A stretch of 23,058 bases of DNA from an uncultured Gemmatimonadota bacterium. Its GTDB lineage: Bacteria > GCA-2686955. The position numbers and the translations under genes were made by a program. The DNA lies in contig CAZBBK010000017.1 in NCBI GenBank assembly GCA_964490075.1, positions 62,001 to 85,058 on the forward strand, in the 5' to 3' direction. The notes under the pieces were generated by a model. It was given only the letters and a program-made list of their open reading frames with translations, was not told where the DNA came from and ran no database searches. Shown one piece after another: positions 421-23,058 of this stretch. How positions within the stretch are numbered: position 1 is the stretch's first letter; each line of letters opens with the position of its first letter.

Positions 421-422
421 CC

Positions 423-4223: not shown

Positions 4224-6133
4224 TGCGAGCATCCGAGTCGTGCCGGAGCATCGAGGGAGCACATGGCTCTGGTGCGTGCTCCGGCTTGCTGCTCCGGGTC
4301 GTGGCACTGCTCCTGGTCGCGGCCACGGGCGGCGCAACGGCGGCGACCATCACGGCGCGCCTGAGCCCCGAGGTGCTCGGCATCAAGGATGAGGCGGTGC
4401 TAGATGTGTCGGTGTCGGCAGGCGCGACCGGGGCTCTGGCCACCCCGCAGCTGCCCCACCTGGACGGCTGGCAGGTGGTGTCGCGCGGCTCGAGCCGCAA
4501 CATGAGCTTCGTCGGCGGCGAGCTCGAGACCTCGGTCACCTACAGCTACACGCTGCGCCCCTTGCGCGAGGGCACGCTGACCATCCCGGCGATCTCGGTG
4601 GAGATTGGCGGCGAGCGGATCGCGAGCGAGCCGCTCACGGCCGAGGTGAAGTCCGGCAGCCTCACCCACGGGCGCGGAAGGGGGCGCCGCAGCCTTCTCG
4701 ACGATCCCTTCGCGCGGCGTCGCAACCGAGGGAGCGGGCGCGAGATCGATCCCTATCAACACGTGGAGATCGAGACCCGGGTCGACCGCCGGGAGTGCTG
4801 GGTGGGAGAGCAGGTCACGCTGGCCTTCCGCCTCGCCACCTCGCCCTACATCCGCTTCGATCGCCAGCCGCTCTACACCGCGCCGGAGGTCGCCGGAGCG
4901 TGGGTCGAGGCGCTGGGAGACCAGATGCGCCGCACCGAGGTGCGGGGCGGGGTCGAGTGGGAGGTGGTGGAGATCCGCTACGCCCTCTTCCCGACGACCG
5001 CCGGGGTGGTCACGGTCGGCCCCGCGAAGCTCGATGGGGTGGTGAACGCCGGCTCGATGGACATCTTCTCGATGATGCGGCGCAGCGGCCGGCGGCTCCT
5101 GCTGGAGACCGATCCGATCGAGATCAGCGCCGCCGCGCTGCCCGAAGCGGACCGGCCGAAACAGTTCGCCGGTGCGGTGGGACAGTACCGGGTGCGCGCC
5201 GACGTGGAGCGCGACCATGCCACCGCCAACGATCCCTTGACGCTGACCATCGAGGTCAGCGGCATCGGCAACCTCAACACCGTGCCCGAGCCGGCGCTGC
5301 CGGAGGTCGAAGGGCTGCGCTTCTTCGAACCGCAGAGCGAGGTGGAACTGGCTCCGCAGGGCGCGCGCCTGGCCGGCCGGCGGGTGTTCACGCGGCTGAT
5401 CGTTCCCGAGTCGGCAGGCACGATCATCCTCCCAGAGCTGGAGCTCAACTTCTTCGACCCCGTCCGCGAGAGCTACCGCAGCACGCGCAGCAGCGCGATG
5501 CGGATCGAGGTGCTGCCCGACCAGGCGCAATCACGCGGTCCAATCGTCACCGGCCTGTCGAAAGAAGAGGTGAAGCGGCTGAAGGCCGAGATCGAGTACA
5601 TCAAGACCGATCTGAGTCGAATCGAGCACCAGGGGGGTCAGAGCTACGACGGCGGCGGCTTCTGGGCGATGGCCGGCGCGCCTCTGCTGGCAATCGCGGG
5701 AGCCTTGGCGATCCGCCGCCGCCGCCATCTGCTCGAGACCGACGTCGGCTACGCCCGCGGCAGCCGAGCGATGAAGCGCCTCGAATCGCGCCTGGCGGAG
5801 CTCAGGTCCATTCCCGAAGGCAGCAACCAGGCCTGGGCGCTGGCGAGTCGAGTCCTTCTCGACTTCGTGGGCGACAAGCTGAACCTCAACGCGGCGGGAC
5901 TCACCACCGACGAGACCCTGTGCCTGCTCGAGTCGTCGGAGCTGCCCGACGAGGTGGTGGCCGAGGTGCGCGAGTTCCTGAGCGCCTGCGACCTGGCGCG
6001 TTACGCCTCGGCGTCGTTCAGCGAATCCCAGGCCGGGTTGGTCGAACGGGTGCGGGCTCTGGCCCGCAGGATCGACAAGCCCAGCAGCGCGCCGGCGCCG
6101 ACGAAGACCGGGACCGGGAGGCGCCAGATATGA
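4220..6133 (+). CDS. batD: BatD family protein (oxygen-tolerance domain repeats, C-terminal TM)
   Basis: GTGATG overlap with the upstream stop (start 4220 or 4223). Signal-like segment; 'YSYTLRPLREGTLTIP', 'WVGEQV', 'YALFP..AG', 'FAGAVGQY', 'SGIGNL', 'FFDP..ESY'; TM near the C-terminus. Confidence 0.85.
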   Translation: MMRASESCRSIEGAHGSGACSGLLLRVVALLLVAATGGATAATITARLSPEVLGIKDEAVLDVSVSAGATGALATPQLPHLDGWQVVSRGSSRNMSFVGGELETSVTYSYTLRPLREGTLTIPAISVEIGGERIASEPLTAEVKSGSLTHGRGRGRRSLLDDPFARRRNRGSGREIDPYQHVEIETRVDRRECWVGEQVTLAFRLATSPYIRFDRQPLYTAPEVAGAWVEALGDQMRRTEVRGGVEWEVVEIRYALFPTTAGVVTVGPAKLDGVVNAGSMDIFSMMRRSGRRLLLETDPIEISAAALPEADRPKQFAGAVGQYRVRADVERDHATANDPLTLTIEVSGIGNLNTVPEPALPEVEGLRFFEPQSEVELAPQGARLAGRRVFTRLIVPESAGTIILPELELNFFDPVRESYRSTRSSAMRIEVLPDQAQSRGPIVTGLSKEEVKRLKAEIEYIKTDLSRIEHQGGQSYDGGGFWAMAGAPLLAIAGALAIRRRRHLLETDVGYARGSRAMKRLESRLAELRSIPEGSNQAWALASRVLLDFVGDKLNLNAAGLTTDETLCLLESSELPDEVVAEVREFLSACDLARYASASFSESQAGLVERVRALARRIDKPSSAPAPTKTGTGRRQI

Positions 6134-6915
6134 GCCGAATGAAGGTCCTGTGGATCACCGGAGTGCTCGCCCTCTCGGCGGGCGCCGAGCCCCTCGGGTC
6201 CGAGGAGCCGGCCGCTCTTCCCGAGGCGCCGCTCGCGCTCTTCCAGAACGGCAACGAGGCCTACGCCGAGGGCGACTACGAGACCGCGATCGCCAGCTAC
6301 CAGGGAATCGTCGCCGCCGGGGTCGAGAACGGCACCGTGCTCTTCAACCTCGGCAATGCCCACCACAAGCAAGGCGACCTGGGGCGCGCGATCCTCGCCT
6401 ACGAGCGTGCGCGGCGCCTGATTCCACGGGATCGCGATCTGCGCGAAAACCGCGACTACCTCGACGTGCTCAAGCACGACAAGAGTCCGGAAGCCTCCAC
6501 CGGGGTGCGAGCGGTGAGGCGCGCGGTCCATTCGCTCACCGTCAGCGAGGCCGCCCGGGCGGCGCTGGCGCTGTGGATCGTGCTCGGACTGCTGCTCACC
6601 CTGCGCATCCTGGCACGCGGCGGGCGCCGCGCCCGGCGACCGCTCGAAGTCGCCGCGATCGCAATTCTGGTGCTGCTGGTGGGCGCGCTCTGCCACACCG
6701 GCTACTTGATCTACGAGCAGTCCCGGCCCGACGCCATCGTGATCGCCGAGCAGGTCGCGATCCGCTCCGGCCCTTCCGAGGGCGACGTGACGGAGTTCAA
6801 GCTACACGCCGGCACCCGGGTGCGGCTGGGACGGCACAGTGGCGACTGGGTCCAGGTCGCGCTCTCCGAGGAGCTGCGCGGCTGGTGCCGGGCGCGGGCG
6901 GTGGAGGGGATTTGA
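6130..6915 (+). CDS. batE: BatE family protein (TPR, two TM helices, C-terminal SH3-like domain)
   Basis: ATGA overlap with the batD stop at 6130-6133, so the real start lies inside the 4795..6915 ORF. 'FQNGNEAYAEGDYETAI', 'FNLGNA', 'AILAYERA..L.P'; SH3b-like 'IRSGPS..FKLHAGTRV..DWVQV..GW'. Confidence 0.88.
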   Translation: MSRMKVLWITGVLALSAGAEPLGSEEPAALPEAPLALFQNGNEAYAEGDYETAIASYQGIVAAGVENGTVLFNLGNAHHKQGDLGRAILAYERARRLIPRDRDLRENRDYLDVLKHDKSPEASTGVRAVRRAVHSLTVSEAARAALALWIVLGLLLTLRILARGGRRARRPLEVAAIAILVLLVGALCHTGYLIYEQSRPDAIVIAEQVAIRSGPSEGDVTEFKLHAGTRVRLGRHSGDWVQVALSEELRGWCRARAVEGI

Positions 6916-6955: not shown

Positions 6956-9178
6956 TCAATCCTCCAACACCCCCACCTCCGCCTCGGTCTCTTCGGTCTC
7001 CGGCTCCAGCTCGGCGACCTCCATCGTCACCTCCGTCGCCGTCTCGACCACATCGGAGTAGAGCGCTGCCCTGAGATCCTCGCGCTTCGGCTTCTCGTTC
7101 CAGCACCAGGCGTCGAACGATTCATCGAAGTGCAGCATGCCGTCGTGGGCGCACTTCACGACCCACAGATCTTCCTCTCCCCCTTCTCCGGGCGGGTCGA
7201 AGGACTCGCTGGTGCCGAAGGCGATCCAACCGTCGTCGGTCGTCAGGATCCGCTTCAGCTCGTCGAGCCCGAGCCCCTGGAAGCTCTTCCAGTAGACGAT
7301 CTCACCCTGCTCGTCGATCTTCAGCACCCAGGAATCCATGTCGTCACCGAGCTCGGTCTTGCCGCACACCAGGTAGCCGCCCTCGGCGGATTCGATCGAG
7401 CTGAAGTAGTCCCATGGAGTGTCGCCGGTGCCCCGTGGACCATCACCCTCGGTGGCATAGACCATGGACCATTCGAGGTCTCCATCCGGATCGATCCTGC
7501 CGATCCACGACTTGTAGCATTCGCCGCCGAAGGGCGATTCGCGCACCGCTCCAGCGACGACGAAATCGCCATCGCTGGTTTCCGTGATCGACCGACCGGC
7601 GTTGGATGATCCACCGTTGTTGAGTTCTCGGGACCACAAGGGCGACCCGTCGGAGTCGGTTCGCAGCACGTAGATCGATTGCCCGCTGTAGCCGTCGGAG
7701 TCGTTCATCTTCCCTACGGCCACCAATCCGCCAGCGCTCGCCTCGTCCACCTCGTAGAGCTGCCCGCCGCGATAGGTCTTCGCCCAGAGCACCGTGCCGT
7801 CGGAGGGATCGACTCTCATCAAGAGCGCCCGGGTCTTGTCCGCGCTGACCACCTCTCCGCAGACCACGATCGAGCCATCGGAGAGCAGCTCCAAGTCGTC
7901 CGCCCGGGCGGTGATGGCGGAGGTGTAGGACCGGGTCCAGACCGGCATCAGCTCCGAGTCGAGACGAGAGATCCAGATCGTTCCGGCCGAGTTGCGATCG
8001 CCCACGACCACGTAGCCGGCGCCGGCGACGGACTCGATCGCGAGGGGTTGGTAGCCATGAAGGAACCTGCGCTGATGAATGGGCATTCCCTGCTGATCAA
8101 GGGTCAGAATCCAGCCCGTGCCGATGCCGTTTTCACCGACGATCACCTGGCGACTGTCTCCAACTCCGTCCGCCGCGGCAATGTCGAACCCGGTGTTGCC
8201 GGCATCGGAAAGATCGTATGACCGCGACCAGCGCGCCCACCCATCGTTGCCGACATCGACCAGCGATCCGCCGGCATCCGCCAGAGGTGTTTTCCCGGTC
8301 AGAAGTGTCGCCAGCGGATTGGTCCCGGTCACGACATCGTACTCACCCGCCACCATTTCGATGCCGCCAATGAGCTCCCACCAGGGATCGGCGACAGGAC
8401 GAACCTCGAGCCGACCGTAGGTATCGATCCCCATGTAGGGGCCGATGATGAAGTCGACCGGAAAGGCCAGGTCGACCAGAGTATGGATCTCGGCGTCGAT
8501 GCCGGACTCGCCAGAGAGCTCGGGTGGAGAGTATTGAACCAGGAAATCCGGCGTCTCGGAGATCGGCGTGTAGCTGCCCCAGTCGTAGTCAAAGCCCTGA
8601 GTGACGCTGTACTGTTGAACCAGTGAAGTGGTCAGGCGGGCCTCGGCGGTCGCGTCCACAGCGGCCGCCAGTCGCAGCACGGGTGTGATCGATACTCCTT
8701 CTGCGATGGGGATCGGCACAAGATAGAACTCCACGGCATCCGACTCCCAGCTGAAAAGCTCCGCCTCCAGGTCGGCGCTGAGTTCGAGCGCCGAGGAAAC
8801 CGTCACGGTCCAACTCAGCTCGATGAGGGCATCGCACGATTCGGAGAGGAAGCTCGAGCAGAGATCGACGTCGAGGGGATCGATCAGAATGCTGCCGTTC
8901 AGCAACACTTGGTCCCCGGTGGTCTGGTGATCGCCATCGGCGTCGTAGACCACTTCGTCGTTGAAGGTCAGGTAGAAACCCCCGTATCCCTCACAGTCCA
9001 CGACCGACGCAGTGGGGACTCCGTCGATCTCGATCGGCCCCTCCGGCCCGAGCAGGTAGTTGTGGCAGACGCGGCTCTCCAGCGCATCCGGCGGATCGGC
9101 CGCCAGGGCCGACGCCGGCGCTGAGGGAATGGCGCACAAAGCAGCATAGAGAGCGATCGAACGCGAAAGCACGGACAT
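6956..9178 (-). CDS. Secreted acidic hypothetical protein with a C-terminal beta-propeller-like repeat region
   Basis: ATG at 9178 preceded by GGAGA. Signal peptide ending ALA. Repeated blades such as 'RTDSDGSPLWSR', 'RIDPDGDLEWSM', 'KIDEQGEIVYWK', 'ITETSDGDFVVAG', 'LTTDDGWIAFG'. 740 aa. Confidence 0.75.
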   Translation of the reverse strand: MSVLSRSIALYAALCAIPSAPASALAADPPDALESRVCHNYLLGPEGPIEIDGVPTASVVDCEGYGGFYLTFNDEVVYDADGDHQTTGDQVLLNGSILIDPLDVDLCSSFLSESCDALIELSWTVTVSSALELSADLEAELFSWESDAVEFYLVPIPIAEGVSITPVLRLAAAVDATAEARLTTSLVQQYSVTQGFDYDWGSYTPISETPDFLVQYSPPELSGESGIDAEIHTLVDLAFPVDFIIGPYMGIDTYGRLEVRPVADPWWELIGGIEMVAGEYDVVTGTNPLATLLTGKTPLADAGGSLVDVGNDGWARWSRSYDLSDAGNTGFDIAAADGVGDSRQVIVGENGIGTGWILTLDQQGMPIHQRRFLHGYQPLAIESVAGAGYVVVGDRNSAGTIWISRLDSELMPVWTRSYTSAITARADDLELLSDGSIVVCGEVVSADKTRALLMRVDPSDGTVLWAKTYRGGQLYEVDEASAGGLVAVGKMNDSDGYSGQSIYVLRTDSDGSPLWSRELNNGGSSNAGRSITETSDGDFVVAGAVRESPFGGECYKSWIGRIDPDGDLEWSMVYATEGDGPRGTGDTPWDYFSSIESAEGGYLVCGKTELGDDMDSWVLKIDEQGEIVYWKSFQGLGLDELKRILTTDDGWIAFGTSESFDPPGEGGEEDLWVVKCAHDGMLHFDESFDAWCWNEKPKREDLRAALYSDVVETATEVTMEVAELEPETEETEAEVGVLED

Positions 9179-9408
9179 GGGATCTCCCGGGGTTGGGGGC
9201 ATGCACTAGAGAGAGCCGGCCCGGTTGCGTTTCTGGGCGCGGACGGCCGCGACGGCTCGGAGAGCCAGACGAGGCGCTATGAGGTAGAGGCCGCGTTGGT
9301 GCGCTGAGGGAACCGGCTGCGCAGCGTCGGCGTGGCAAGAAGCTCGGGCGGGTCGGCTCTGTGGAGACGAGCTGTTTTCGAGGACCGCCTGCCGGCCGAA
9401 AACCGCCC

Positions 9409-9708
9409 CTACCTCCGAACCGCCCTCTTGAATATGGCGAAATCGGCGATCTGAGTCACCGCGCAGAGCTCCCAGCCTTCGCGGCTGCGCTCTTCGAGCA
9501 TGGTCGCGAAGAGCTCTGGATGGCGACCGAGCGGCTTGATCGAGACCAGCTCGTGCTGGTACGTGATGTCCGGAACGGGAGTCTCCTCCTCCATGCCGGT
9601 GGTGGCGGGCGGGGAGAGTTCGGCGCGGGCCAGCGTGCCGACCAGGGCGGCGCCGGCGGCGAGGCCGGAGAGGAAGACCAACAGAGACGAGACGGAGAAG
9701 AAACGCAT
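9409..9708 (-). CDS. Small exported/membrane-anchored DUF4177-like protein
   Basis: ATG preceded by GGAG. Hydrophobic N-terminus, then 'YQHELV...LEERSREGWELCAV....IFKR', which resembles the DUF4177 pattern (L..lg.eGWELv....FKR). Confidence 0.65.
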   Translation of the reverse strand: MRFFSVSSLLVFLSGLAAGAALVGTLARAELSPPATTGMEEETPVPDITYQHELVSIKPLGRHPELFATMLEERSREGWELCAVTQIADFAIFKRAVRR

Positions 9709-9912: not shown

Positions 9913-10731
9913 GTGAATCACCGCGAAGCGTCGAGCAGCGCACCGAGCTCGGGACGCCTGGCGTGGCTGGCGATCGGCGTCGTGGCGGCGCTCGTGGCGC
10001 TGGCGCTGGCGGGGCTGCGGCGCGGTGGGGGCGACGAGGCCCTCTTCGTCTACGTGGGCGCCGGCTTCCGGCTGCCGGTCGAGGAGGCCGCCGGGCGCTT
10101 CCGCGAGCAGACCGGGATTCCGGTCGAGCTCTCGTTCGGCGGCTCGGGTTGCGTGCTGGCGCAGGCCTCACTCTCGCGGCGCGGTGACCTCTACATGCCG
10201 GGCGAGGAGTTCTTCATGGCGCAGGCGCGGCGGCGCGACATGATCGTCGCCGAGCGCCCGATCGCCCACATGTGGCCGGTAGTGCTGGTGCAGGAAGGCA
10301 ATCCGCTGGGGATCACCGGCCTGGACGACCTGCGACGCGCCGGCCTGCGGGTCGGACTGGGGGACCCGGAAGCGACCGCCTGCGGCATCGCGGCCGATGC
10401 TCTCCTGCAACGCCGCGGGCTGAAGGCCCCGGTCGCGGCCAACCAGATCATGGCGGCCTTGAACGTCAACGAGCTGGGCACCGCCGTGGCGCTCGAGGCG
10501 CTCGACGCGGCGATCGCCTGGGACGCCACCGCCGATCTCTTCGCGGCCGATGTCGACGTGGTGGCGATTCCTCCCGGTGTGGGCCGGCGCACCACGATCC
10601 CGCTGGGGATCCTGAGCTACTCCAAGCGGCCCGAGGCGGCGCGGCGCTTTCTCGAATTCATGGCCTCGCCCGAGGGCGGCGTGGCGGTGTTTCGCGAGCA
10701 CGGCTACGACGTATCGGATCGCACTTCGTGA
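9913..10731 (+). CDS. modA: Molybdate/tungstate ABC transporter substrate-binding protein (ModA3-like subgroup)
   Basis: GTG with AGGAG upstream. N-terminal anchor; 'YVGAGFRLPVEE', 'FGGSG', 'GDLYMPG', 'GNPLGITGLDDL', 'LGDPEA', 'DAAIAW', 'ARRFLEFM', 'FREHGY'. Confidence 0.85.
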   Translation: MNHREASSSAPSSGRLAWLAIGVVAALVALALAGLRRGGGDEALFVYVGAGFRLPVEEAAGRFREQTGIPVELSFGGSGCVLAQASLSRRGDLYMPGEEFFMAQARRRDMIVAERPIAHMWPVVLVQEGNPLGITGLDDLRRAGLRVGLGDPEATACGIAADALLQRRGLKAPVAANQIMAALNVNELGTAVALEALDAAIAWDATADLFAADVDVVAIPPGVGRRTTIPLGILSYSKRPEAARRFLEFMASPEGGVAVFREHGYDVSDRTS

Positions 10732-11510
10732 GTCGAGCTTTCCGGGTCGGAGCGCTCGGCATGCTGGCGACCTTCGCCACGATGGTGGCGATCCTGGTCG
10801 GATCCGACCTTCTCTACCTCAGCCCGGCGGTGCTCTGGCAGGAGCTGATTCGCGCCGAGACGCTCTTCGCGATCCGTCTCTCGCTGATCACCGCCACCAT
10901 CACCACGGTGTTGGCGATGGGAATCGGCGTACCAGCCGCCTACGCCCTGTCGCGCTTCAAGGTCCCCTGCGCCGGTCTGATCGACACCCTGATCGATCTG
11001 CCGATCGTGCTGCCACCGCTCTTGATCGGCTTCAGCCTGCTGATCGTCTACCAGACCGCCTTCGGCCACCTCCTGGTCGCCGGAGGGCTGGACCTGCGCT
11101 ACAGCGTGCCGGGCATCGTGCTGGCGCAGTTTCTGGTGGCGGCGGCGTTCGCGATCCGCACCCTGAAGGCGGCCTTCGATTCGATCGATCCGCGTCTGGA
11201 GCAGGTCGCCCGCACCTTGGGAGCATCGCCCGGCCGTTCCTTCCGGTGCATCGTGCTCCCGCTCGCCCGCCGTGGCATGGTGGCCGGCGCGGTCATGACC
11301 TGGGCGCGGGCGATCGGCGAGTTCGGCCCGATCCTGGTGTTCTGCGGAGCCACGCGCTGGCACACCGAGGTGCTGCCGATCGCCATCTGGCTCGACTTCT
11401 CGATCGGCCGGATCGAGGCGGCGATGGCGTTGGCGGTGATCATGCTCGCCATCAGCACGGCGAGCCTGGTGGCCTTCAAACGCCTCGGCGGGAAGGGCTA
11501 CCTGTGGTGA
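10728..11510 (+). CDS. modB: Molybdate ABC transporter permease
   Basis: GTGA overlap with the modA stop. 'FAIRLSLITA', 'GVPAAYALSR', 'DLPIVLPP', EAA-like 'LEQVARTLGAS', 'WARAIGEFG'. Confidence 0.88.
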   Translation: MSRAFRVGALGMLATFATMVAILVGSDLLYLSPAVLWQELIRAETLFAIRLSLITATITTVLAMGIGVPAAYALSRFKVPCAGLIDTLIDLPIVLPPLLIGFSLLIVYQTAFGHLLVAGGLDLRYSVPGIVLAQFLVAAAFAIRTLKAAFDSIDPRLEQVARTLGASPGRSFRCIVLPLARRGMVAGAVMTWARAIGEFGPILVFCGATRWHTEVLPIAIWLDFSIGRIEAAMALAVIMLAISTASLVAFKRLGGKGYLW

Positions 11511-11514
11511 GCCG

Positions 11515-12543
11515 ATGATCCGCGTGAGCGAGCTGAGCGCGACCGCCGGCGCCTTCCGCCTGCGCAAGATGTCGCTGGAACTGCCGAGCGGCGGCTACGG
11601 GGCCATCGTCGGGCCGACCGGGGCCGGCAAGACCGTGCTGATCGAAGCCATCGCCGGTCTACAACCCGTGGACTCCGGTAGCGTCGAGGTCGACGGGCGC
11701 GACCTGACCCGGGCGGCTCCCGAGGTCCGCCGCTTCGGCTACGTCCCGCAGGACCGCGCTCTTTTCCCCCACATGTCGGTAGCCCAGAACATCGTGTTCG
11801 GACTTGACCGAAGCCCACCGGACAAGTGGGAGCGAATGTCCGATCTCGTCCAACTGCTGGGCATTGGACACCTGTCCGAGCGTCGCCCGCGAACACTCTC
11901 CGGCGGGGAGGCGCAGCGGGTCGCGCTGGCGCGGGCCCTGGCCCCTGATCCTCCCGCGCTGCTTCTGGATGAACCGCTCACGGGGCTCGACCACGACACT
12001 CGCCGGGAGATGGTCGGGGTATTGGAGCTCATCCACCAATCGACCGGCGCCACAGTCCTCCACGTGACCCATGACCTGGACGAGGCGCTGGCGCTGGCCG
12101 ATCACCTGGGCGTCATTCGCGGTGGACAAGTCCTCGAGTGGGGATCGATCGACGCGGTCTTCGGCCACCCCCGGGACGAGCGAGTGGCACGCTCGGTGGG
12201 AATGGACAACCTCCTCGATGTCCAGATCCTGGGCCCAGGACGGATGCGCGTTGCGGGCCTCGAATTCCCTTGTCTCGAAGGGCTGTCATCGGGTTCTGCC
12301 CGGGTGGCGATTCGCGCCGGCGATGTGCTGATCACGAGCTCGGGGGACGAGCGCGGCCGACCGGCAACGGTTTCCGCCATGCGGCGCCGGAGCCGCGATA
12401 TCCTGGTGCGGCTGAGCGCCCACGCGGACGCCGAGATGGCGCTGCTCGCTTCCTGCTCACCGGCGCGCGCCCGCCAACTCGGGCTGCGGGTCGGCGGCGA
12501 GGTGCGCGTCCTCATCGAACCGGAAAGAATCCACCTGCTGTGA
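11515..12543 (+). CDS. modC: ABC transporter ATP-binding protein with C-terminal TOBE-like domain (ModC/WtpC-like)
   Basis: Walker A GPTGAGKT, Q-loop YVPQD, signature LSGGEAQR, Walker B LLLDEP, H-loop VTHD. C-terminal 'QLGLRVGGEVRVLI' is TOBE-like. Confidence 0.88.
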   Translation: MIRVSELSATAGAFRLRKMSLELPSGGYGAIVGPTGAGKTVLIEAIAGLQPVDSGSVEVDGRDLTRAAPEVRRFGYVPQDRALFPHMSVAQNIVFGLDRSPPDKWERMSDLVQLLGIGHLSERRPRTLSGGEAQRVALARALAPDPPALLLDEPLTGLDHDTRREMVGVLELIHQSTGATVLHVTHDLDEALALADHLGVIRGGQVLEWGSIDAVFGHPRDERVARSVGMDNLLDVQILGPGRMRVAGLEFPCLEGLSSGSARVAIRAGDVLITSSGDERGRPATVSAMRRRSRDILVRLSAHADAEMALLASCSPARARQLGLRVGGEVRVLIEPERIHLL

Positions 12544-12806
12544 TTATCGAGCTCGACTCCGCGCTGGCCGACCTGGCGGGCGGCAGCACATTCGAATACC
12601 GCCCGGCCGCCGGCGCGACGGCGGCGGACGCAGTCCAGTACCTGGCGGACGCCGTGGGCGGACGCTTCGCCGAGCGGGTGTATACGCCCGACGGGTGGCT
12701 GGCGATCATCGTCGCGGTGCAGGGCGAGGTGTCCGGCTCACCCGCAACACGCGACCTGGAGGGAGTGGAGCGGATTCTGCTCTTCAGTCCCCTGGCGGGA
12801 GGATGA
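12540..12806 (+). CDS. MoaD/ThiS-family ubiquitin-like sulfur carrier protein (88 aa)
   Basis: GTGA overlap with the modC stop. VIIELDSALADLAGG...GATAADAVQYL...IIVAVQGE...ILLFSPLAGG-stop gives a beta-grasp pattern and C-terminal diglycine. The E1-like gene follows directly. Confidence 0.8.
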   Translation: MIIELDSALADLAGGSTFEYRPAAGATAADAVQYLADAVGGRFAERVYTPDGWLAIIVAVQGEVSGSPATRDLEGVERILLFSPLAGG

Positions 12807-13546
12807 GGGTGACGATCGATCCGATGGAACGGGCCCGAGACCAGATGTTGCTGCCCGGGTTCGGCGCCGAGGGCCAGGCGCGCCTCGCGGCCGCGACCGT
12901 GCTCTGCGCGCGGATCGGCGGACTGGGCGGCCCGGCCGCGCTGGAGCTGGCCGCTGGCGGCGTGGGGCGGCTGCGCGTCGCCCACGGCGAGCCGATCAAG
13001 CCGGCCCACATGCACCGCATGATCGCCATGACCGATCAGGCGCTGGGCGAGCCGGGAATCGACTCGGGCATCGAGGGCCTGCGGCGCGTCAACGGCGACA
13101 TCGAGCTGCAGGCCCTTCCCTCCGACACGCGTAGCCTCGCGCATGCGATGGAGCTGGTGGAGGGCGTCGACGCGGTGCTCAGCGCTCCTCCGTCGATGGA
13201 GCAGCGGCTGTGGCTGAACGAGGCCGCGGTGCGCGCCGGCGTGCCCTTCGTCGATGCCGCGATGCACGGTTGGCTGGGGCAGGTGCTGGTGGTGCTGCCG
13301 GGCGAGACCGCCTGCCTGGCCTGCATCTGCGCCGCGCCCCCGGCGTTGCAGAAACCCTTCCCCGTGCTCGGCGCCACCTCTGCGGTGGCCGGCTGCCTGG
13401 CGGCCGCCGAGATCGTCAAGATCCTGGCACGGCTGCCCGGGGGCCCCGCCGGGCATCTGCTGCGCTTCGACCTGACAACCTGGAGTTTCCAGAGGCTCTC
13501 GGCCCCCAGAAAGGCCGACTGCCCGGTCTGCGCCCAGGCTTCGTGA
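12803..13546 (+). CDS. HesA/MoeB/ThiF family E1-like protein, HesA-like and divergent
   Basis: ATGA overlap with the previous stop. 'QMLLPGFGAEGQARL', 'IGGLGG', 'AAGGVGRL', 'LNEAAV..GVPFVDAAM', two CxxC zinc motifs (CLAC, CPVC), 'AAEIVKIL'. Confidence 0.87.
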   Translation: MRVTIDPMERARDQMLLPGFGAEGQARLAAATVLCARIGGLGGPAALELAAGGVGRLRVAHGEPIKPAHMHRMIAMTDQALGEPGIDSGIEGLRRVNGDIELQALPSDTRSLAHAMELVEGVDAVLSAPPSMEQRLWLNEAAVRAGVPFVDAAMHGWLGQVLVVLPGETACLACICAAPPALQKPFPVLGATSAVAGCLAAAEIVKILARLPGGPAGHLLRFDLTTWSFQRLSAPRKADCPVCAQAS

Positions 13547-15228
13547 CAGCGCTCGCCGCCTTGGTCGTGGCCGCGACCGCGGCGCTCTTCACGGTCTTCG
13601 GTCTGGGTGGCGGGATCGTCTACCTGCCCTTGATCTACGGGCTCGGGGCGTCGTACCGGGTGGCGGCCTCGACGGCCCTCTTGCTCAACGTGGTGGCGGG
13701 ATCGGCGGCGACCCTCGAGTACGTTCGCGGGCGGCGGATGATCGGCGCGGTGGTCTGGCCCGCCGCCCTGATCGGGGTCGCGGTCGCCCCCCTGGCCGCC
13801 TTCGAAGCCGGCCGCTCCGACGTCCGGTTGCTGCGCTGGGGCTTGGTGGCGCTGCTGGCCTTCGCGGCGCTGCGCTTCCTCACCCAGGGCGAGTCCGAAT
13901 CGCGGCCCGAGTCCGCACGGCGGCGGCGTCCTCCCAGATCGATCCTGCTGCTCACCGGCGTGGCGCTGGGTGCCGGCAACGGCGTGGTGGCGGGACTGCT
14001 GGGGATCGGCGGCGGCATCATCACCTCGCCTCTGCTGCTGGCGGCGGGCGTCTCCCCCGCCCGCACCGCGGCGACGACAGCGCCGATCGTGGTCGCCGCC
14101 TCCGCCGCCGGCTTCATCGGCCACCTCTCCTACGGAGTCGTCGACACCCGCTGGGCCCTGGCCTGCGTGCCGGCGGCGCTGATCGGTGGGGCGATCGGAT
14201 CACGGATCCACCGCATCGGGGGGCTGCGTCCCGAGCTCGTCAAGCGGGCTTTCGGCGCTCTGCTGGCGGCAGCCGCGGTGCTGGTCGGATCGATCACCGC
14301 GGGCCGCGCCGATCCCTACAACGTCGACCGTCTGTCGCATACCGTGCTCGGGATCCTGCGCCTGGCCGAGGGCGAGGGACCGGGCCTGTCGCCCCGGGCG
14401 GCCGAGCGGGTGCGCCCCGTGCTGGAGGCGCTGGTGCGCCTGCGCCGCGGCGGCACCCTGTCGCCGGAGGCCCAGGCCGCGTCGGCGGGAGTGCTGGACG
14501 GCTTCGCCGACGCGCTTCGCGATGCGCTGCCGGAGGAGCAACGCCGCTGGCTGGGCTCGACGCGCACCAGCGTTCGGGATCTGAGGGAGCTCTCGAGGGC
14601 CCCCTTCGATCTGGCCCCGGGCAGCCCAACGCCGCGCGTCCGCGACGTGCCGCCGCTCGACCTGCGCAGGATGCGTTGGTGGCGGACCGGCAACGCGGTG
14701 CGCCGCGTCGCCGAGGGCGGCGGCGGCAGCGCGATGGCGCTGAGCAACCGTCCGCCATGGGCGGCCGAGCTCGCGGAGCAGCTCCCGCTGCCGATCCGCC
14801 TCGACCGCACCAGCGGTGCGCTCCGCTTGCGATCCGATCTCGTCCCGGCCGACGCCGGTGGATCCGCGGTGGTCACGCTCTGGGTCGACGGGGACGGCGA
14901 TCGACGACTCGGCGCGGATGCCGATGTGGCCTTTCGGTGGCGCCGCTCCGCCGACGGAGGCGCTCCGGTCGGCGAGGCAGGACGCTACGTGGGACGCGTC
15001 GACGATCCCGATCTACTGGCCGACGATCAGAGCCTGTGGCGCTGGTCGCCCGCCGCGGAGCCTCTCCGCGTCGACCCGGAACGGGCGCGGCTGCTGGTCC
15101 GCCTGAGCCGTGGCAGCCCCGATGCTCCCCAGATCGGCCGCCCCAGCTGGCAATGGCCGCGCGCCACCTCGACGGTCCTCGACCCCGCCACCTGGGAGCC
15201 GGTCAGTCGTCTTCCTTCTCCGGATTGA
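13543..15228 (+). CDS. TauE/SafE (sulfite exporter, DUF81) family transporter fused to a ~305-aa unknown C-terminal domain
   Basis: GTGA overlap with the E1 stop. Two internal-repeat motifs 'FGLGGGIVYLP' and 'LLGIGGGIITSP', multiple TM segments to ~14310; the frame stays open to 15228. Confidence 0.8.
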   Translation: MTALAALVVAATAALFTVFGLGGGIVYLPLIYGLGASYRVAASTALLLNVVAGSAATLEYVRGRRMIGAVVWPAALIGVAVAPLAAFEAGRSDVRLLRWGLVALLAFAALRFLTQGESESRPESARRRRPPRSILLLTGVALGAGNGVVAGLLGIGGGIITSPLLLAAGVSPARTAATTAPIVVAASAAGFIGHLSYGVVDTRWALACVPAALIGGAIGSRIHRIGGLRPELVKRAFGALLAAAAVLVGSITAGRADPYNVDRLSHTVLGILRLAEGEGPGLSPRAAERVRPVLEALVRLRRGGTLSPEAQAASAGVLDGFADALRDALPEEQRRWLGSTRTSVRDLRELSRAPFDLAPGSPTPRVRDVPPLDLRRMRWWRTGNAVRRVAEGGGGSAMALSNRPPWAAELAEQLPLPIRLDRTSGALRLRSDLVPADAGGSAVVTLWVDGDGDRRLGADADVAFRWRRSADGGAPVGEAGRYVGRVDDPDLLADDQSLWRWSPAAEPLRVDPERARLLVRLSRGSPDAPQIGRPSWQWPRATSTVLDPATWEPVSRLPSPD

Positions 15229-17767
15229 CCTTCGCCTCGAGCTTCTGCAGGCGCCCCTCGAGCTTGCGCACGGTCTCCTCCAGGCGCTCGATCTGCTCCT
15301 TGGCCGCGGCCTTGGGGCCGCCCTCCGCCCTTCCCCGCAAGCGCCGAATCAAGCGGTCCAGGTCGGGATGGTCCTGCGCGGCGAAGGTCGCCTTCATGGT
15401 CTCGATCGCGGCGGCGGCGCCCGGCGTCTCGAGCGGCGCCAGGGCGTGGGCGACCGTCCAGCGGATCAGCTCCTGCGGGTCGCGGGTCAGGTCGAGCAGG
15501 CGCGCCTCGTGCGGCCGCCGCTCGTGCGGCGCGCGCCAGCTGAGCGCCGCGGCGAGGGCGCGAACCGCGGCGGGTCGGCAAAGGTCGGTCTCGGCCCCGT
15601 AGCCGATCCGGCCGCCGAGCACCTCCACCGCGCGAGGGCTTCTGCTGCGCCCCAGGGCGAGCAAGGCGGCACGGCGCAGCTCTCCGTTCCAGCCCTCGGT
15701 ATCGAGCGCCGTGATCAACCGCTCCAGATCGTCGCCATCGAATTGCGCCGCCAGGGCAGCGAGCGCCGTTCCGCGCGCCCGGTATCCCAGATCATCGCGC
15801 TCCAGGTAGCGACGCAATGCCTCCGCCACCCGCCGGTCGCGGTAGCGGCCGCAGGCGGCGGCAATCACGGCCATGACGCGCGGATGCGCCTCGCTCTCCA
15901 GGCAACGCACCAGAATCGCGATCGCCAACTCGTTGTTGGAACGCGCCAGGGCACGCGCCATCTCGATCCGCACTCCCCAGAAGGGCTCGGCCCCGTAGAC
16001 CTCCCCCACCGCGTCGAAGTTTCGTCGGCCACCGCTTTCGATCAGCTCGCGCGCCGCCAAGATGCGACCTTCGATGTCCTCCGCCTCCACGAGTTGCCGG
16101 CGCAGCATCCCCTCGCCCGGATTGAAGCTGATCTTGCGCAGTAGCTTTCCCTCGGGATCGATCCGCACCTGGCGCGGTTTCGAGCTCATCGGCACCACGA
16201 AGCTCTGCTTCTGCTCGCCGTCGATCGCCACGACCACGCGGTGCGGCTCGCCATCGGCGCTCTGCCACCACAGATCGAGATCGAACACGAAGGGGCCAAT
16301 GCCGCGCGCATCGTCTTTCTGTGTCTGCTCGATTCCGAATACGCCCTCGCGCGCCTCCTGGTCGTACCTGAAACGCGCCTTCAGCTTCGGGTAGCCGGGT
16401 GCGTAGATCCACTGGTCGAAAAAGCGCTGCAGGCTGCGGCCCGAGTGCTTCTCGAGCACCCGCCGAAAGTCGTCGGTCTCGACCACGTCTTTCGAGTAGC
16501 GCGCCACGTAGTCCCGAACCGCCGGCCAGAAAACCCCGTCTCCCAACATCGCCCGCAGCATGTGGATGCGACATGCGCCCCCGGGATAAGTGTGGCGATC
16601 GAACATCTGCCAGCTAGAGACATAGTTTCTGGTGGTGATCGGACGGGCGTAGTGCTCGTCGACTTCGTGGAAGTAGCGATGGGCGTTGATCCAAAGATCG
16701 TAACGCGCCTGGTCCGCCCCTTCGATCTCCTCCAACCAGACCGTCTCGATGTAGGTCGCCCACGACTCCTTGAGCCAGCAGTGCGAATGATCGCGGATGA
16801 CGATCGCATCGCCGAAGTAGGAGTGCGCCATCTCGTGGATGTTGGTGGCGTCTACGTCGGCGCCTGCCTCTCGGTGCAGTGTCTCATCCTGGATGTAGCG
16901 CGCATCCCAGCTCACCAGAGAGATGTTCTCCATGGCGCCGGGAATGCCGGGCAGCGCGAACTGATAGTATTTCGCAAAGGGAAAGGAGGCGCCCAGACGG
17001 CCGACCAGCCAGCGCATCATTTCGGGTGTGCGCCCGAACGAGCGTCGCAGATCCTCGGGACTGTAGCCCTTGCGCGGACCGAAGTAGGCGATCTGCACGC
17101 CGTCGACCGACTCGTCGTCGTAGCGACAGAAATCGCCGATGGCGACACAGAGCAGGTAGCTGGGGCAGGGATAGTCGAGCGTCCAGATCGAGGTTTGCGT
17201 GCCGTTGCCGTTGTTGACCGTCTCTTGCTCGGCACCGGACGCCAGAATGGTCAGATCGGAGGGCGCGGTCAGCCGCATCTGGTAGGTGGTGCGCACCGTT
17301 GGCAGGTCGATGCAGGGCAGCCAGTAGCGAGCCCGCTCGGTCTCATGGTCGGTGGAGGCGTAGAGCGGACGCTCGGGATAGGCATCGTCGGGCACCGAGA
17401 AGAGCAGGCCGGAGATCGGCTCGCTGACGGAGTAGTGCACGCGCACTCGGCGCACCTCGGCGGCCGCGAAGGGGGCGGCCCAGGTGAGGTGGATCTCGGA
17501 GCCGTCGTAGCTGAACGAGAGCTCGGCGCCGTCGGCGTCCTCGACGCGCAGGTCTTCGAAGCCGATGGCGTTCAGGCACAACGAGCGCGGCCCATCGACG
17601 CGCGCCGCGACCGAGGTGGTCGCGCAACCGCGCACGGTCCGCGCGCTCGGATCGAAGGCGAGATCGAGCTCGATATGGCGTGGCTCGAGCTCGAGATCGG
17701 GCGGATAGTGGGGCCTCGCGCCAAGGCCGGCGAAGTCTGTCGGGGCGGGTCTCGACCTGTGCTCCAT
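15203..17767 (-). CDS. M1 family zinc aminopeptidase with C-terminal HEAT-like repeats and coiled coil
   Basis: GAMEN motif, HEMAH-X18-E ('HEMAHSYFGD...WLKESWATY'), 'ARYWLPCID', 'FFDQW'. HEAT-like repeats; terminal 'IERLEETVRKLEGRLQKLEAK'. Confidence 0.92.
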   Translation of the reverse strand: MEHRSRPAPTDFAGLGARPHYPPDLELEPRHIELDLAFDPSARTVRGCATTSVAARVDGPRSLCLNAIGFEDLRVEDADGAELSFSYDGSEIHLTWAAPFAAAEVRRVRVHYSVSEPISGLLFSVPDDAYPERPLYASTDHETERARYWLPCIDLPTVRTTYQMRLTAPSDLTILASGAEQETVNNGNGTQTSIWTLDYPCPSYLLCVAIGDFCRYDDESVDGVQIAYFGPRKGYSPEDLRRSFGRTPEMMRWLVGRLGASFPFAKYYQFALPGIPGAMENISLVSWDARYIQDETLHREAGADVDATNIHEMAHSYFGDAIVIRDHSHCWLKESWATYIETVWLEEIEGADQARYDLWINAHRYFHEVDEHYARPITTRNYVSSWQMFDRHTYPGGACRIHMLRAMLGDGVFWPAVRDYVARYSKDVVETDDFRRVLEKHSGRSLQRFFDQWIYAPGYPKLKARFRYDQEAREGVFGIEQTQKDDARGIGPFVFDLDLWWQSADGEPHRVVVAIDGEQKQSFVVPMSSKPRQVRIDPEGKLLRKISFNPGEGMLRRQLVEAEDIEGRILAARELIESGGRRNFDAVGEVYGAEPFWGVRIEMARALARSNNELAIAILVRCLESEAHPRVMAVIAAACGRYRDRRVAEALRRYLERDDLGYRARGTALAALAAQFDGDDLERLITALDTEGWNGELRRAALLALGRSRSPRAVEVLGGRIGYGAETDLCRPAAVRALAAALSWRAPHERRPHEARLLDLTRDPQELIRWTVAHALAPLETPGAAAAIETMKATFAAQDHPDLDRLIRRLRGRAEGGPKAAAKEQIERLEETVRKLEGRLQKLEAKVNPEKEDD

Positions 17768-19234: not shown

Positions 19235-19540
19235 GGCGGCTCTCCCGCGTTCGTGGCGCCGGGGGGGGGGAGCGACCCGGACCGCCCCGGCCCCGGTCGC
19301 GAGCCACCGCGGTGGGCGCGCAATTAGGCGATTACCGCCCCCACATCGAGCAACGCCCGNNNNNNNNNNGGGCCGCGCCCCCCCCCCGCCCCACGCCCAA
19401 CACCCGGCCACCCCCGGCGGCTCCCCCCCGTGCGGGGCGCCGGGGGGGGGGGAGCGACCGGGACCGCGCGGGCCCCGGTCGCGAGCCTCAGCGTTGGGCG
19501 CGCTATTCGGCGATTCCGGCGACCTCTTCGAGCATCGCCG
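19190..19540. other. Scaffold gap (10 N, 19360-19369) flanked by two error-laden copies of the same ~170 bp; probable unmerged contig overlap
   Basis: ~19190-19359 aligns to 19370-19540 at an offset of ~182. The left copy ends with a corrupted version of the citrate synthase 3' end; the right copy begins with a corrupted version of the Nudix 5' end. Confidence 0.8.
19454..19482 (-). terminator. GC-rich hairpin just downstream of citrate synthase (possible terminator or stabilising hairpin)
   Basis: GCGACCGGG (19454-62) / CCCGGTCGC (19474-82), ~20 nt past the stop codon. No U tract visible, but the adjacent poly-G is low-quality sequence. Confidence 0.35.
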
Positions 19541-20810
19541 TGGTGACCGACTTGGGCCGCTCGATCGGATAGCCGAGGGCGCGGTCCCAGGTGATGTTGG
19601 CCAGGGTGCCGATCGCTCGACCGATGCCGAAGAGCACCGTGTAGAAGGAGTACTCGGTCACGCCGTAGTACCACTGGATCACGCCGGACTGGGCGTCGAC
19701 GTTGGGCCAGGGGTTCTTCGCCTTGCCGTGCTCCATCAGCACCGGCGGGGCCACCTTGTAGATGGTGTTGATCACCTTGAAGAGCGGGTAGTCCGGCAGG
19801 TTCTTCTCGCAGAACTCCATCTGCGATACGTAGCGCGGATCGGTCTTGCGCAGCACCGCGTGGCCGTAGCCCGGAACCACCTGACCGCTGTTCAGGGTGT
19901 CCCACAGGGCCTGGCGGATCACATCCTCGGTCGGCTCGGCGTCGCCCAGCTCTTCGATGAAGTTCTGGGTCCAGCGCAGCACGTTCTCGTTGGCCAGCCC
20001 GTGCAGCGGCCCGGCGAGGCCGTTGAGGCCGGCGGAGAGGGCGTAGTAGGCGTCGGAGAGGGCCGAGGCGACCAGGTGCACGGTGTGCGCCGACACGTTG
20101 CCCGACTCGTGGTCGGAGTGCAGGATGAAGTACATCCGCGCCACGTCGTCGTAGGGGGCGTCGATGCCCATCATGTGCGCGAAGTTGCCGCCGAAATCGA
20201 GCTCGGGGTCGGGCGCGATCGGGGTGTCGGCCTTGAACTTCATGCGGTAGATGTAGGCGCCGATCTCCGGGAGCTTCGCCAGGAGGTTGCAGCAGTCCTC
20301 ATAGGTCGAATCCCAGAAGTCCATCTTGCTCATGCCCTTGCGATACTCCTCGGCGAACTCCGACTCGCGCTGCATGGCGAGGATCGCGGCCGAGAACATG
20401 GTCATCGGGTGGGTATCTCGGGGCATGGCGCGCAGCACGTCGAACACGTACTGCGGCACTCGGGCGCGGGTCTTGAAGTCGCGGGCGACCTCTTGCGCCT
20501 GGTCGAGGGTCGGCACCTCGCCGGTCAGCAGGAAGTGCCAGAACCCCTCGACGTAGGGGTATTCGCTGCCGGGGACTTTCGGCAGGGCGGCGAAGGTCTC
20601 GGGAATGGTCTTGCCGCGGAAGCGGATGCCTTCCATGGGGTCAAGGTAGGAGATGTCGGTCACCAGGCAGCGGACTCCCCGCGCGCCGCCAATGGCCTGG
20701 CCGATCGTGACTTCGCCTACCTTCGCATCTGCGTGCTGCTTGAGAAGGCGCGTGGTTCGCGCTCGGTGCTTCTCGATCTGCTGGAAGAGGGTTTCCTTAA
20801 GCGTGGACAT
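19503..20810 (-). CDS. gltA: Citrate (Si)-synthase, eukaryotic/mitochondrial type
   Basis: ATG with AAGGAG. 'EGIRFRGKTIPE', 'HSDHESGNVSAH', 'GLAGPLHGLAN', 'VVPGYGHAVLRKTDPRY', 'KNPWPNVDAQSG', 'PIERPKS'. Confidence 0.95.
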   Translation of the reverse strand: MSTLKETLFQQIEKHRARTTRLLKQHADAKVGEVTIGQAIGGARGVRCLVTDISYLDPMEGIRFRGKTIPETFAALPKVPGSEYPYVEGFWHFLLTGEVPTLDQAQEVARDFKTRARVPQYVFDVLRAMPRDTHPMTMFSAAILAMQRESEFAEEYRKGMSKMDFWDSTYEDCCNLLAKLPEIGAYIYRMKFKADTPIAPDPELDFGGNFAHMMGIDAPYDDVARMYFILHSDHESGNVSAHTVHLVASALSDAYYALSAGLNGLAGPLHGLANENVLRWTQNFIEELGDAEPTEDVIRQALWDTLNSGQVVPGYGHAVLRKTDPRYVSQMEFCEKNLPDYPLFKVINTIYKVAPPVLMEHGKAKNPWPNVDAQSGVIQWYYGVTEYSFYTVLFGIGRAIGTLANITWDRALGYPIERPKSVTTAMLEEVAGIAE

Positions 20811-22799: not shown

Positions 22800-22990
22800 T
22801 GGATGTTCCCCCGTTTTCGTAGCCACTGTTCTTATGCTGCTCTTGTTCCAAGTGTAGCCGAATTTTCGAATTCCCGTGGACTGACGCCCCCGAGGTACGA
22901 GTGCCGCCTACGAGTATTGTAGAAGCTCTCGATGTACTCGAAGATCGCGGCCTTCGCGTCCTCGAGCGAATCGAAGTCGGTCCGGCGCAT
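22800..22990 (-). mobile_element. IS3-family insertion sequence remnant (right end: transposase C-terminus plus terminal inverted repeat)
   Basis: Minus-strand peptide 'FDSLEDAKAAIFEYIESFYNTRRRHSYLGGVSPREFE' matches the IS3 OrfB C-terminus; stop at 22832. TGGATGTTCCCCCGTTTTCGTAGCCAC (22800-22826) resembles an IS3-type TG-starting IR. Confidence 0.75.
22832..22990 (-). pseudogene. Truncated IS3-family transposase (integrase core C-terminal fragment)
   Basis: Similarity ends near 22990. The expected upstream 'DNA..ESFF..LK.E' segment is absent in all three minus frames of 22990-23058. Confidence 0.65.
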
Positions 22991-23058
22991 CGGGATCAGC
23001 AAGTCCGGCCGCCGGTGGTAGCCGTGGAGCCAGGGGCTCTTGGCCCGGATGAACATGG

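Follow-up and report, generated by a model that had tools for sequence, protein, structure and literature searches.

A HesA-clade E1 and a Gly-Gly ubiquitin-like protein encoded with a Mod-type importer in a conserved operon of a Gemmatimonadota bacterium without detected nitrogenase genes

Minimal nif clusters of the kind employed in engineering reach full nitrogenase activity only with HesA, a protein that has no established substrate, and the operon described here raises the question of what such an E1 might do beside an oxyanion importer in a bacterium in whose genome (95% complete) none of nifH, D, K, E and N was found. Since a partnered HesA relative occurs where no nitrogenase was found, HesA function becomes testable in this operon, and the small GG protein encoded there is a concrete candidate HesA partner that offers a simple in vitro test.

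The stretch that was analysed (the window, 23,058 nucleotides from an uncultured Gemmatimonadota bacterium) contains six successive plus-strand ORFs (Table 1), the last of which, at 13543-15228, encodes both parts of a TauE fusion. A codon model fitted to this genome calls all six, and they are joined by GTGA overlaps at 10728, 12540 and 13543, an ATGA overlap at 12803 and a 4-nt gap (11510/11515), in agreement with the initial annotation of six same-strand, closely coupled genes. The families are, in order, SBP_bac_11/modA, BPD_transp_1/TIGR01581, ABC_tran with TOBE, the 88-aa GG protein (Ubl), ThiF and TauE. The operon is confirmed as genuine and conserved, with dN below dS for all six genes in a comparison with a genome of the same family, and its stretch is covered, with one base differing, by contigs from three other DNA runs that belong to a single study, none of these contigs spanning the whole. 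No Moco, thiamine, JAMM or rhodanese protein is present among the 16 window proteins scanned with profiles, four more called ORFs being judged by eye, which bears out an earlier statement that the window lacks such genes. No Rfam match and no promoter-like site was found, and the one terminator-like site is at chance level.

Table 1. Features of the operon, with positions in the window and the basis of each assignment.
Position	Strand	Feature	Basis
9913..10731	+	ModA-like oxyanion-binding protein, N-terminal membrane anchor, single domain	PF13531 E 1e-47
10728..11510	+	ModB-like permease, TIGR01581 clade	TIGR01581 220.7 vs 210.3 cut-off
11515..12543	+	ABC ATPase with C-terminal TOBE	PF00005, PF03459
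12540..12806	+	88-aa MoaD/SAMP-like protein, C-terminal Gly-Gly, no Lys, no Cys	translation; family alignment
12803..13546	+	HesA-clade E1-like protein	PF00899 125 bits; tree; residue tallies
13543..14304	+	TauE/SafE (TSUP) membrane domain, residues 1-254, eight hydrophobic segments	PF01925 E 2e-29; hydropathy
14305..15228	+	soluble tail of ~310 aa, fused to TauE; helical at first, then beta-rich with an invariant DxDGD	invariant columns; low-confidence model

The importer resembles ModABC, WtpABC and TupABC in having an SBP_bac_11 binding protein, a class I permease and a TOBE-bearing ATPase, but the permease and ATPase score below the ModB, ModC, WtpB and WtpC cut-offs and the permease belongs to TIGR01581. 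The canonical ModABC equivalog set is therefore incomplete: the binding protein passes narrowly (TIGR01256, 64.3 bits with a cut-off of 62.5), while the permease (TIGR02141, 167.7 with a cut-off of 182.6) and the ATPase (modC, 199.1 with a cut-off of 285.05) fail. The closest solved relatives of the binding protein are ModA and PEB3. Several Planctomycetota orthologues of the permease score under the TIGR01581 cut-off; this clade goes by the name 'NifC-like' and is not known to have an established substrate. The ModA-like copies of Planctomycetota are mostly tandem domain pairs, whereas the window copy has a single domain, and the pocket Ser, retained in the window ModA, is replaced by Cys in 40 of 81 ModA-like domains (second domains of the tandem proteins), 39 of which have a second Cys.

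The window Ubl has no Pfam or NCBIfam match of its own; its two orthologues match ThiS weakly, below the cut-off, other family members do so above it, and a profile made from the neighbours of related E1s, with the window Ubl as one of the seeds, matches it at E 7e-19. The best match among solved structures is SAMP1, which is weak and non-significant over the whole length (E 0.83). The terminal GG is invariant in 26/26 aligned members, and the operon Ubls form a sequence family apart from the MoaDs at MoaE loci. In 46 of the 47 loci with a Ubl its gene is directly adjacent, and on one contig (L109) Ubl and HesA are fused. A co-fold of the E1 with the Ubl, as proposed in the initial annotation, supports the pairing weakly, with a score of 0.59 against 0.01 for the best control, contact agreement of at least 95% between runs, a partner pLDDT of at least 89 and a pLDDT of 90 for the Ubl chain inside the predicted complex; with scores of 0.60 or less, the pass mark was reached by 18/157 solved complexes and by both of the only two mismatches (of 215) that passed, and the pass may be explained by likeness to MoeB-MoaD.

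The E1 was previously described as HesA-type, and it does join HesA from nif clusters, not MoeB/ThiF/MoeZ (SH-aLRT 99.8, 66 rows against 25), in a quick IQ-TREE tree without bootstrap, where rows P0020, P0033 and P0037 carry a 'nif' label without a check of DNA context and were excluded from the residue tallies. A long branch (1.42) leads to the window subclade. The model (pLDDT 94.3) has MoeB 1jw9 as its best structural match (E 1.8e-23, TM 0.90), and the zinc cysteines C171, C174, C240 and C243 in two CxxC motifs, the Arg73 equivalent R72 and the glycine loop are kept. The window E1 also shows the HesA-clade signature, with His or Arg in place of Asp62 (numbering Asp62/Gly38/Asn70), Phe at 186 and no Cys187 equivalent. 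Across the clade the acidic residue after strand 2 is replaced, by His in 118/119 rows and by Arg in one, and a Cys in the Cys187 zone is found in 0/119 rows against 15/25 canonical rows.

Two catalytic residues are absent from the window E1, a point overlooked in the initial annotation: G85 stands for Lys86 and S127 for Asp130, positions occupied by K and D in 25/25 canonical rows. All four members of the host's subclade lack equivalents of Arg14, Lys86 and Asp130 and have extra cysteines at 35 and 176, whereas Asp130 is kept in 88 of 109 other clade members, all 109 of which have Arg for Lys86. Catalytic roles of the Lys86 and Asp130 equivalents are treated in two papers (PMC13139853, PMC12355090), the former of which gives the Asp130 equivalent as essential in yeast Tcd2. 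With these two residues missing, the window copy may be unable to adenylate, as judged from its sequence. The gene is nonetheless strongly conserved, with a dN/dS of about 0.10 against 0.26 for the MoaD-MoaE control.

Compared with nif HesA of Paenibacillus, cyanobacteria and Frankia, the window E1 shares the tree clade, the His/Arg after strand 2, the short F-P/S-V crossover loop and the lack of a Cys187 equivalent, but its host has no detected nitrogenase, its Arg finger is replaced, an Arg is present in the glycine loop and Lys86 and Asp130 are also missing. It further differs in having a dedicated GG protein, which is absent at the six Bacillota and cyanobacterial nif loci examined, the cyanobacterial one being only 3.7 kb long. 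Genetics links nif HesA to both Mo and S, with hesA mutants that are partially rescued by high molybdate or cystine but not by moeB and that retain nitrate reductase (PMC6361004), and one paper speculates that HesA targets the GG termini of NifB and NifN (PMC3798268). The E1 fold, the Zn site and a GG-tailed small partner encoded directly upstream are shared with MoaD-MoeB and ThiS-ThiF, from which the operon differs by the lack of a nearby MoaE or ThiG, by five positions of the active-site signature and by a host that encodes the canonical pairs elsewhere. In Iyer et al. 2006 (PMC1779556), row 4e combines ThiS/MoaD, JAB, E1 and SirA with sulfite/sulfate ABC transporters; it is similar in placing a Ubl and a rhodanese-less E1 beside an oxyanion ABC transporter, while the window operon lacks JAB, SirA and sulfate-reduction genes and has a HesA-clade E1 and a Mod-type importer. 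No description of the arrangement as such turned up in the literature searched, which did not include the E1-superfamily paper of Burroughs et al. 2009.

A core of five genes, modA-modB-modC-Ubl-hesA, recurs widely, and the gene order, for which a search of other genomes had been suggested, is conserved for the importer, the Ubl and the E1. TauE, claimed earlier as part of a six-gene unit, is found in only 3 of 108 outside loci and is accessory, outside the general core. Its substrate is not predictable from TauE/SafE (TSUP) membership, according to PMC5840216. The tail (model pLDDT 43.6, dN/dS 0.28) is confined to four related proteins; searches, one of them limited to lengths of 308-982, gave two further weak partial matches and no other relatives, the ESM Atlas had no match, and fold searches with the low-confidence model were uninformative. 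The E1 often follows modC directly without a Ubl, which is present in 10 of the 23 metagenome importer-E1 loci that have 3 kb or more of upstream sequence. Among 201 Planctomycetota genomes 28 carry the E1; the importer adjoins it in 19 of these, 20 have a GG-ending Ubl and only two have nifH, and the importer's ModB clade is found anywhere in the genome of 26/28 carriers against 9/173 others. Canonical modB is over the cut-off in only 4/28 carriers, though MoaE is present in 26/28, against 106/173 others, a comparison confounded by kinship and genome size. In one genome (G211) E1, Ubl and importer are all inside a nif cluster, where the partner of the Ubl is ambiguous because it is flanked by HesA and a canonical MoeZ; in another (G103) E1-Ubl-TauE adjoins canonical modABC. 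MoaE, MoeA, nifH and AOR were not found in the E1-bearing draft genomes G103 and G071.

We put at roughly 0.45 the probability that the operon represents, in the form peculiar to its lineage, a conserved module of importer, Ubl and HesA that works independently of nitrogenase. Molybdate uptake would here be linked to a sulfur relay through the Ubl, which would condition Mo for a client beyond ordinary Moco synthesis. The ABC transporter would import molybdate or a close oxyanion; the E1 would bind the GG-tailed Ubl, which most members of the family would also adenylate, a step that is weakest for the window copy because the active site has diverged further in the host lineage; a NifS-like or rhodanese persulfide donor, encoded outside the operon, might convert the Ubl to a thiocarboxylate; this sulfur, together with HesA, would turn the imported Mo into a sulfur-ligated species meant for some client that is not molybdopterin synthesis, which is the Mo/S role attributed by genetics to nif HesA; and TauE may move a sulfur oxyanion or a product. 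Gene content, conservation, HesA ancestry of the E1 and the separateness from the host's other Ubl systems are observed. For the mechanism speak the clade membership and hesA genetics, the importer co-location, the Ubl adjacency and fusion, the co-fold, the two independent links to Mo in G211 and G103, and the scarcity of canonical modB among carriers that mostly have MoaE. Against it count the Gly and Ser at Lys86 and Asp130, the ModABC and TupABC that the host already has, the many importer-E1 loci without Ubl, the two carriers without detected Moco, nif or AOR genes, the ambiguous Ubl partner in G211, and the absence of an identified client.

The same residues would fit an E1 that in the host lineage is non-catalytic or altered in chemistry; it would bind the Ubl together with either an adenine nucleotide or a metal species and serve as sensor, as chaperone or as regulator of the importer. 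The three missing residues, the long branch, the strong constraint despite these losses, the clade-wide replacement after strand 2 and the E1 genes placed after modC without Ubl all favour it, but the invariant GG, the retained Arg73 and glycine loop, and the 88 other members with Asp130 (all 109 having Arg for Lys86) leave it rather unlikely. We give similarly limited credence to an importer for another sulfur-containing or thiophilic oxyanion (thiosulfate, sulfonate or selenite) that serves an envelope system and not Mo metabolism. The dedicated Mo and W importers of the host, the Cys-substituted pockets, the two carriers just mentioned and sulfate-activation genes in 3/108 loci are in line with it, as is the importer clade tracking a three-cysteine protein in Planctomycetota (27/35 against 3/166 of the 201 genomes), while the nif and modABC settings, the modA score and the pocket Ser of the window ModA are not; for selenium, no in-frame TGA or read-through was seen at conserved positions, cysteines included, of five families, and selA is in 2/108 loci, which are near-identical.

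A SAMP/Urm1-like system that conjugates the Ubl to other proteins or, as raised in the initial annotation, to the transporters is improbable because the E1 has no Cys187 equivalent and the operon no E2 or JAMM; neither was prominent among recurring neighbours in clusters judged partly by eye, and the host's JAB protease gene, which together with the SAMP1 match and the cysteines at 35 and 176 might have suggested it, sits within a cysteine-synthase cluster. Also improbable is that the operon serves a Moco pathway, be it ordinary, split or redundant, with the Ubl as MoaD for MoaE and the E1 as MoeB. MoaE in most carriers and 13 molybdo/tungstoenzyme matches in the host are compatible with it, but among 19 MoaE loci fetched from carriers 18 have a MoaD of their own, adjacent or fused, the operon Ubls are a separate family, and nitrate reductase is independent of nif HesA (PMC6361004). 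Moreover, a look for a separate canonical set in the host found a MoaD-MoaE fusion, a MoaD-ThiF-rhodanese fusion (MoaD-MoeZ), ThiS/ThiF/ThiG, ModABC and TupABC, so the operon is not the host's Moco pathway and is separate from its Moco, thiamine and cysteine Ubl systems. With the gene order conserved, a HesA-type E1 and these canonical pairs, the operon is neither peculiar to this genome nor its only MoaD/MoeB, and the view of it as a stand-alone module holds. Tungsten, offered as the alternative metal, found no support, AOR being present in 4/28 carriers against 57/173 others and TupABC being separate.

In Planctomycetota the module accompanies an uncharacterised FtsX-type ABC exporter, the three-cysteine protein and large beta-propellers; the host has no detected three-cysteine protein and no clear orthologues of the exporter or large propeller. 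The three-cysteine protein, which has no Pfam or NCBIfam match and only unnamed clusters in the Atlas, occurs without a HesA-clade E1 in 7/201 genomes and the importer clade in nine, which also counts against the Mo-conditioning reading. It is conceivable, if doubtful, that the ancestral setting of HesA was an undescribed metal-sulfur cofactor pathway, in which an imported oxyanion would be sulfurated by Ubl and HesA, re-exported (by the FtsX-type ABC in Planctomycetota, possibly by the TauE fusion here) and passed by the three-cysteine envelope protein to the large beta-propellers, giving a site of Mo or another metal that is neither Moco nor FeMo-co, with HesA later borrowed by nif clusters for Mo/S delivery. 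The HesA clade is in any case widespread in the absence of nitrogenase, next to a Mod-type importer and in many cases accompanied by a GG protein of its own. The larger Planctomycetota system around the core had been overlooked in the initial annotation, and this uncharacterised multi-gene system is present in about one seventh of the Planctomycetota genomes sampled.

Re-inspection of the window sequence confirmed the six open reading frames, four overlaps and one 4-nt gap described in the initial annotation, and all six genes are called by a codon model trained on the host genome. In order they encode a ModA-like protein, a TIGR01581 permease, an ABC ATPase with a TOBE domain, an 88-residue ubiquitin-like protein ending in GG (Ubl) for which the family search gave no match, a ThiF-family protein (E1) and a TauE protein with a 310-residue tail, and the 3' end of the last gene shares 26 nt with the convergent M1 aminopeptidase gene. 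The module is real and conserved, and is built from known families in an arrangement that was not found in the literature searched, though it may be listed in Burroughs et al. 2009 (PMC2732565) or in the supplement to Iyer et al. 2006. The terms HesA, molybdate and planctomyc are absent from the main text of PMC1779556, and the arrangement was likewise not found in the consulted passages of PMC6361004, PMC6147048, PMC5840216, PMC2948915, PMC3798268, PMC4284476 and preprint 10.64898/2026.10.06.756941.

Features of the window, the host genome (G000) and other loci
Feature	Location	Strand	Basis or remark
Ordinary Bat operon (DUF58, DUF4381, two BatA/VWA, BatD, BatE-like)	window 1-6915	+	first and last gene assigned by eye
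~740-aa secreted-looking protein	window 6956-9202	-	weak beta-propeller matches
99-aa gene, divergent from modA	window 9409-9708	-	no Pfam and no strong NCBIfam match
Six-gene operon	window 9913-15228	+	
M1 aminopeptidase with HEAT repeats	window 15203-17767	-	family match
Citrate synthase	window 19503-20810	-	family match
Histidine-kinase-like ATPase protein	window 21075-22664	+	family match
Insertion-sequence-like fragment, window end	window 22832-23056	-	by eye
Ubl followed by BNR-repeat protein	L012:10009-11372 (G000:C22)		ThiS family
AOR and HdrA-like/bifurcating-module cluster, then TupABC and microcompartment shell genes	G000:C32:37975-50799		mostly by eye
Planctomycetota nif cluster, HesA of non-nif subtype	L211 (G211:C5:1633300-1653200)		
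Tandem ModA (example)	L193:12430-14031	-	second domain with Cys at the anion-binding Ser position and a further conserved Cys

The E1 is present at ~80% identity in two of three same-family genomes, and its two closest matches among named records are in Gemmatimonadota MAGs (L027 and L028). All six genes occur in the same order at L028, interrupted ahead of the Ubl by a single opposite-strand gene, and are split over two contigs in G003. Ratios of dN/dS against the genome G002, computed from dN and dS with dS near saturation, are 0.17 for ModA, 0.12 for ModB, 0.24 for ModC, 0.42 for Ubl, 0.10 for E1 and 0.28 for TauE with its tail, and 0.08–0.26 for four control genes; sequence comparison indicates that the E1 is under strong selection. 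Both same-family genomes have a gene similar to the 99-residue one upstream of modA, and the gene for the secreted-looking protein has a lower GC content (62–64%) and is absent from the same position in two relatives. Short N runs near 18.6–19.4 kb introduce X into the reading frames there.

Importer, Ubl and E1 recur together in Planctomycetota and in metagenomes, and the conserved gene order on which the initial annotation had let its proposal depend is thus found elsewhere, but its full six-gene set is not general, with TauE at only 2 of the best 80 of at least 452 confirmed metagenome matches, picked by E1 similarity alone. At these best 80 loci at least one importer gene is found in 41 and a Ubl in 27 (23 and 13 among the 38 loci with at least 3 kb upstream), and five nif marker queries gave zero matches; the neighbour profiles were built from the same loci, and the window's own proteins as queries gave the same picture. 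Among 201 evenly sampled Planctomycetota genomes the E1 is found in 28 carriers, where the region within ~10 kb holds the importer in 19 (all three genes in 18), the Ubl in 20 and both in 17, several of these loci being broken off at contig ends. By our arithmetic, chance adjacency would be below 1% per genome. The ModB clade (at least 250 bits) occurs genome-wide in 26/28 carriers against 9/173 others, MoaE in 26/28 against 106/173, and a secreted three-cysteine protein in 23/28 against 7/173, enrichments whose significance is overstated since the genomes include kin and are not independent. The Ubl immediately adjoins the E1 in 46 of the 47 loci with a Ubl and is fused to it on a 1.2-kb contig (L109). 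The operon Ubls form a family apart from MoaD, which was seen at 18 of 19 MoaE loci (19 of 29 loci fetched).

That the E1 is HesA-type is borne out by a quick tree without bootstrap (91 of 147 prepared rows, omitting for size three of four rows from metagenomes and most of those from Acidobacteriota), where a branch with SH-aLRT 99.8 separates the window E1, six nif-locus HesA and the Planctomycetota E1s from 25 canonical MoeB/ThiF/MoeZ. Residues were tallied over these 25 and over 119 HesA-clade rows (6 nif, 4 of the host clade formed by the window E1 and close relatives, 109 others). The acidic position after strand 2 holds D/E in 25/25 canonical and H or R in 119/119 HesA-clade rows; in the Cys187 zone (MoeB-type numbering) the HesA-clade rows all lack a Cys. 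The Lys86 equivalent is K in 25/25 canonical rows, R in 115/115 of the HesA clade outside the host clade, and G or A in the host clade; the Asp130 equivalent is D in 25/25 canonical, 6/6 nif and 88/109 other rows, and S in 4/4 of the host clade. In rows from outside nif clusters, W mostly takes the place of the Arg finger (98/109), and the glycine loop contains an Arg (113/113). PMC13139853 reports that MoeB/ThiF can do without the Arg finger, and treats the Lys86 equivalent as important and the Asp130 equivalent as essential in Tcd2; PMC12355090 lists the same residue set. Since both the Lys86 and Asp130 equivalents are replaced, the window E1, predicted to be well folded, may not be a normal adenylyltransferase, and the enzyme of the window copy may be inactive. 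In a further HesA-clade subgroup that keeps the Arg finger (L107, L108, L114, L122, L154, L156), a ~300-residue gene without Pfam match is always next downstream of the E1, with no importer nearby.

Co-folding of Ubl and E1, proposed in the initial annotation, passed at 0.59 against 0.01 for the best control, with at least 95% agreement of contacts between runs and partner pLDDT of at least 89, and weakly supports binding of the Ubl to the E1; scores up to 0.60 comprised 18 of 157 solved complexes and both mismatches that passed (2 of 215), and as MoeB-MoaD is already solved the pass may reflect likeness to that complex.

The operon Ubl and E1 would work as a sulfur-carrier pair of the MoaD/MoeB type that is linked to the uptake of an oxyanion, but the operon is not the Moco pathway. 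The host genome (5.7 Mb, 95% complete) has the separate canonical moaD/moaE/moeB-type set that the annotation had proposed looking for: besides the operon Ubl there are four ThiS-family genes, namely a MoaD-MoaE fusion, a MoaD-ThiF-rhodanese fusion adjoining cysteine synthase and a JAB protease with moaC-moeA near, thiS-thiF-thiG, and the Ubl preceding the BNR-repeat protein, and the genome has three ThiF-family genes. It also encodes a canonical modABC and, adjoining AOR, a TupABC-like importer (recognised by PF12849 and by eye), so that every ordinary Ubl/E1 job, and the import of both metals, is already provided for. Matches to the DMSO-reductase family number six, to AOR one and to the xanthine-oxidase family six, and tRNA-Sec, selA and selB are present. 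The E1 belongs to the same HesA clade as nif HesA, yet it is not nif HesA; searches of the host genome for nifH, D, K, E and N found none of them, and nifH is present in 2/28 carriers.

Links to molybdenum and sulfur are found elsewhere. In the nif cluster of the Planctomycetota genome G211, E1, Ubl, a canonical MoeZ and the importer sit between nifENX and nifZ-W-V-S, and in G103 a canonical modABC directly adjoins E1, Ubl, a ThiS-ThiF fusion and a half-size TauE, the last also found with Ubl and E1 at L136 and L165; canonical modB is present in only 4/28 carriers. According to PMC6361004, Paenibacillus without hesA retains almost no nitrogenase activity; the defect is relieved in part by high molybdate or cystine but not by moeB, and nitrate reductase is spared. 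Among ModA-like domains, 40/81 have Cys for the pocket Ser and 39/81 the second Cys, and the paired Cys of the second ModA domain suggests a disulfide or dithiol pocket. A simple molybdenum reading is weakened by these cysteines, by the redundancy in the host, and by two E1 carriers where no Moco or nif genes were detected.

The module offers a candidate partner for HesA and brings a larger unknown system to light, with substrate and client still at candidate level. In Planctomycetota and at many metagenome loci the neighbours of the core include 1200–1500-residue PQQ-type beta-propellers that contain methyltransferase domains together with LamG or malectin ones, an ABC exporter of the FtsX type, and the secreted three-cysteine protein, which has a Cys at its N terminus and an invariant CxC. 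None of these partners was found in the host genome, which has the TauE fusion instead; that the fusion stands in for them is speculation. A string of large propeller with methyltransferase domain, family-less three-cysteine protein, exporter, tandem ModA, ModB and ModC recurs at L193, L199, L207, L127, L235 and L249 (Planctomycetota and metagenomes), with Ubl and HesA variably present, and resembles an import-modify-export system of an undescribed kind. In several genomes the importer and the three-cysteine protein occur with no E1 nearby, indicating that HesA is frequent but not obligatory in the larger system.
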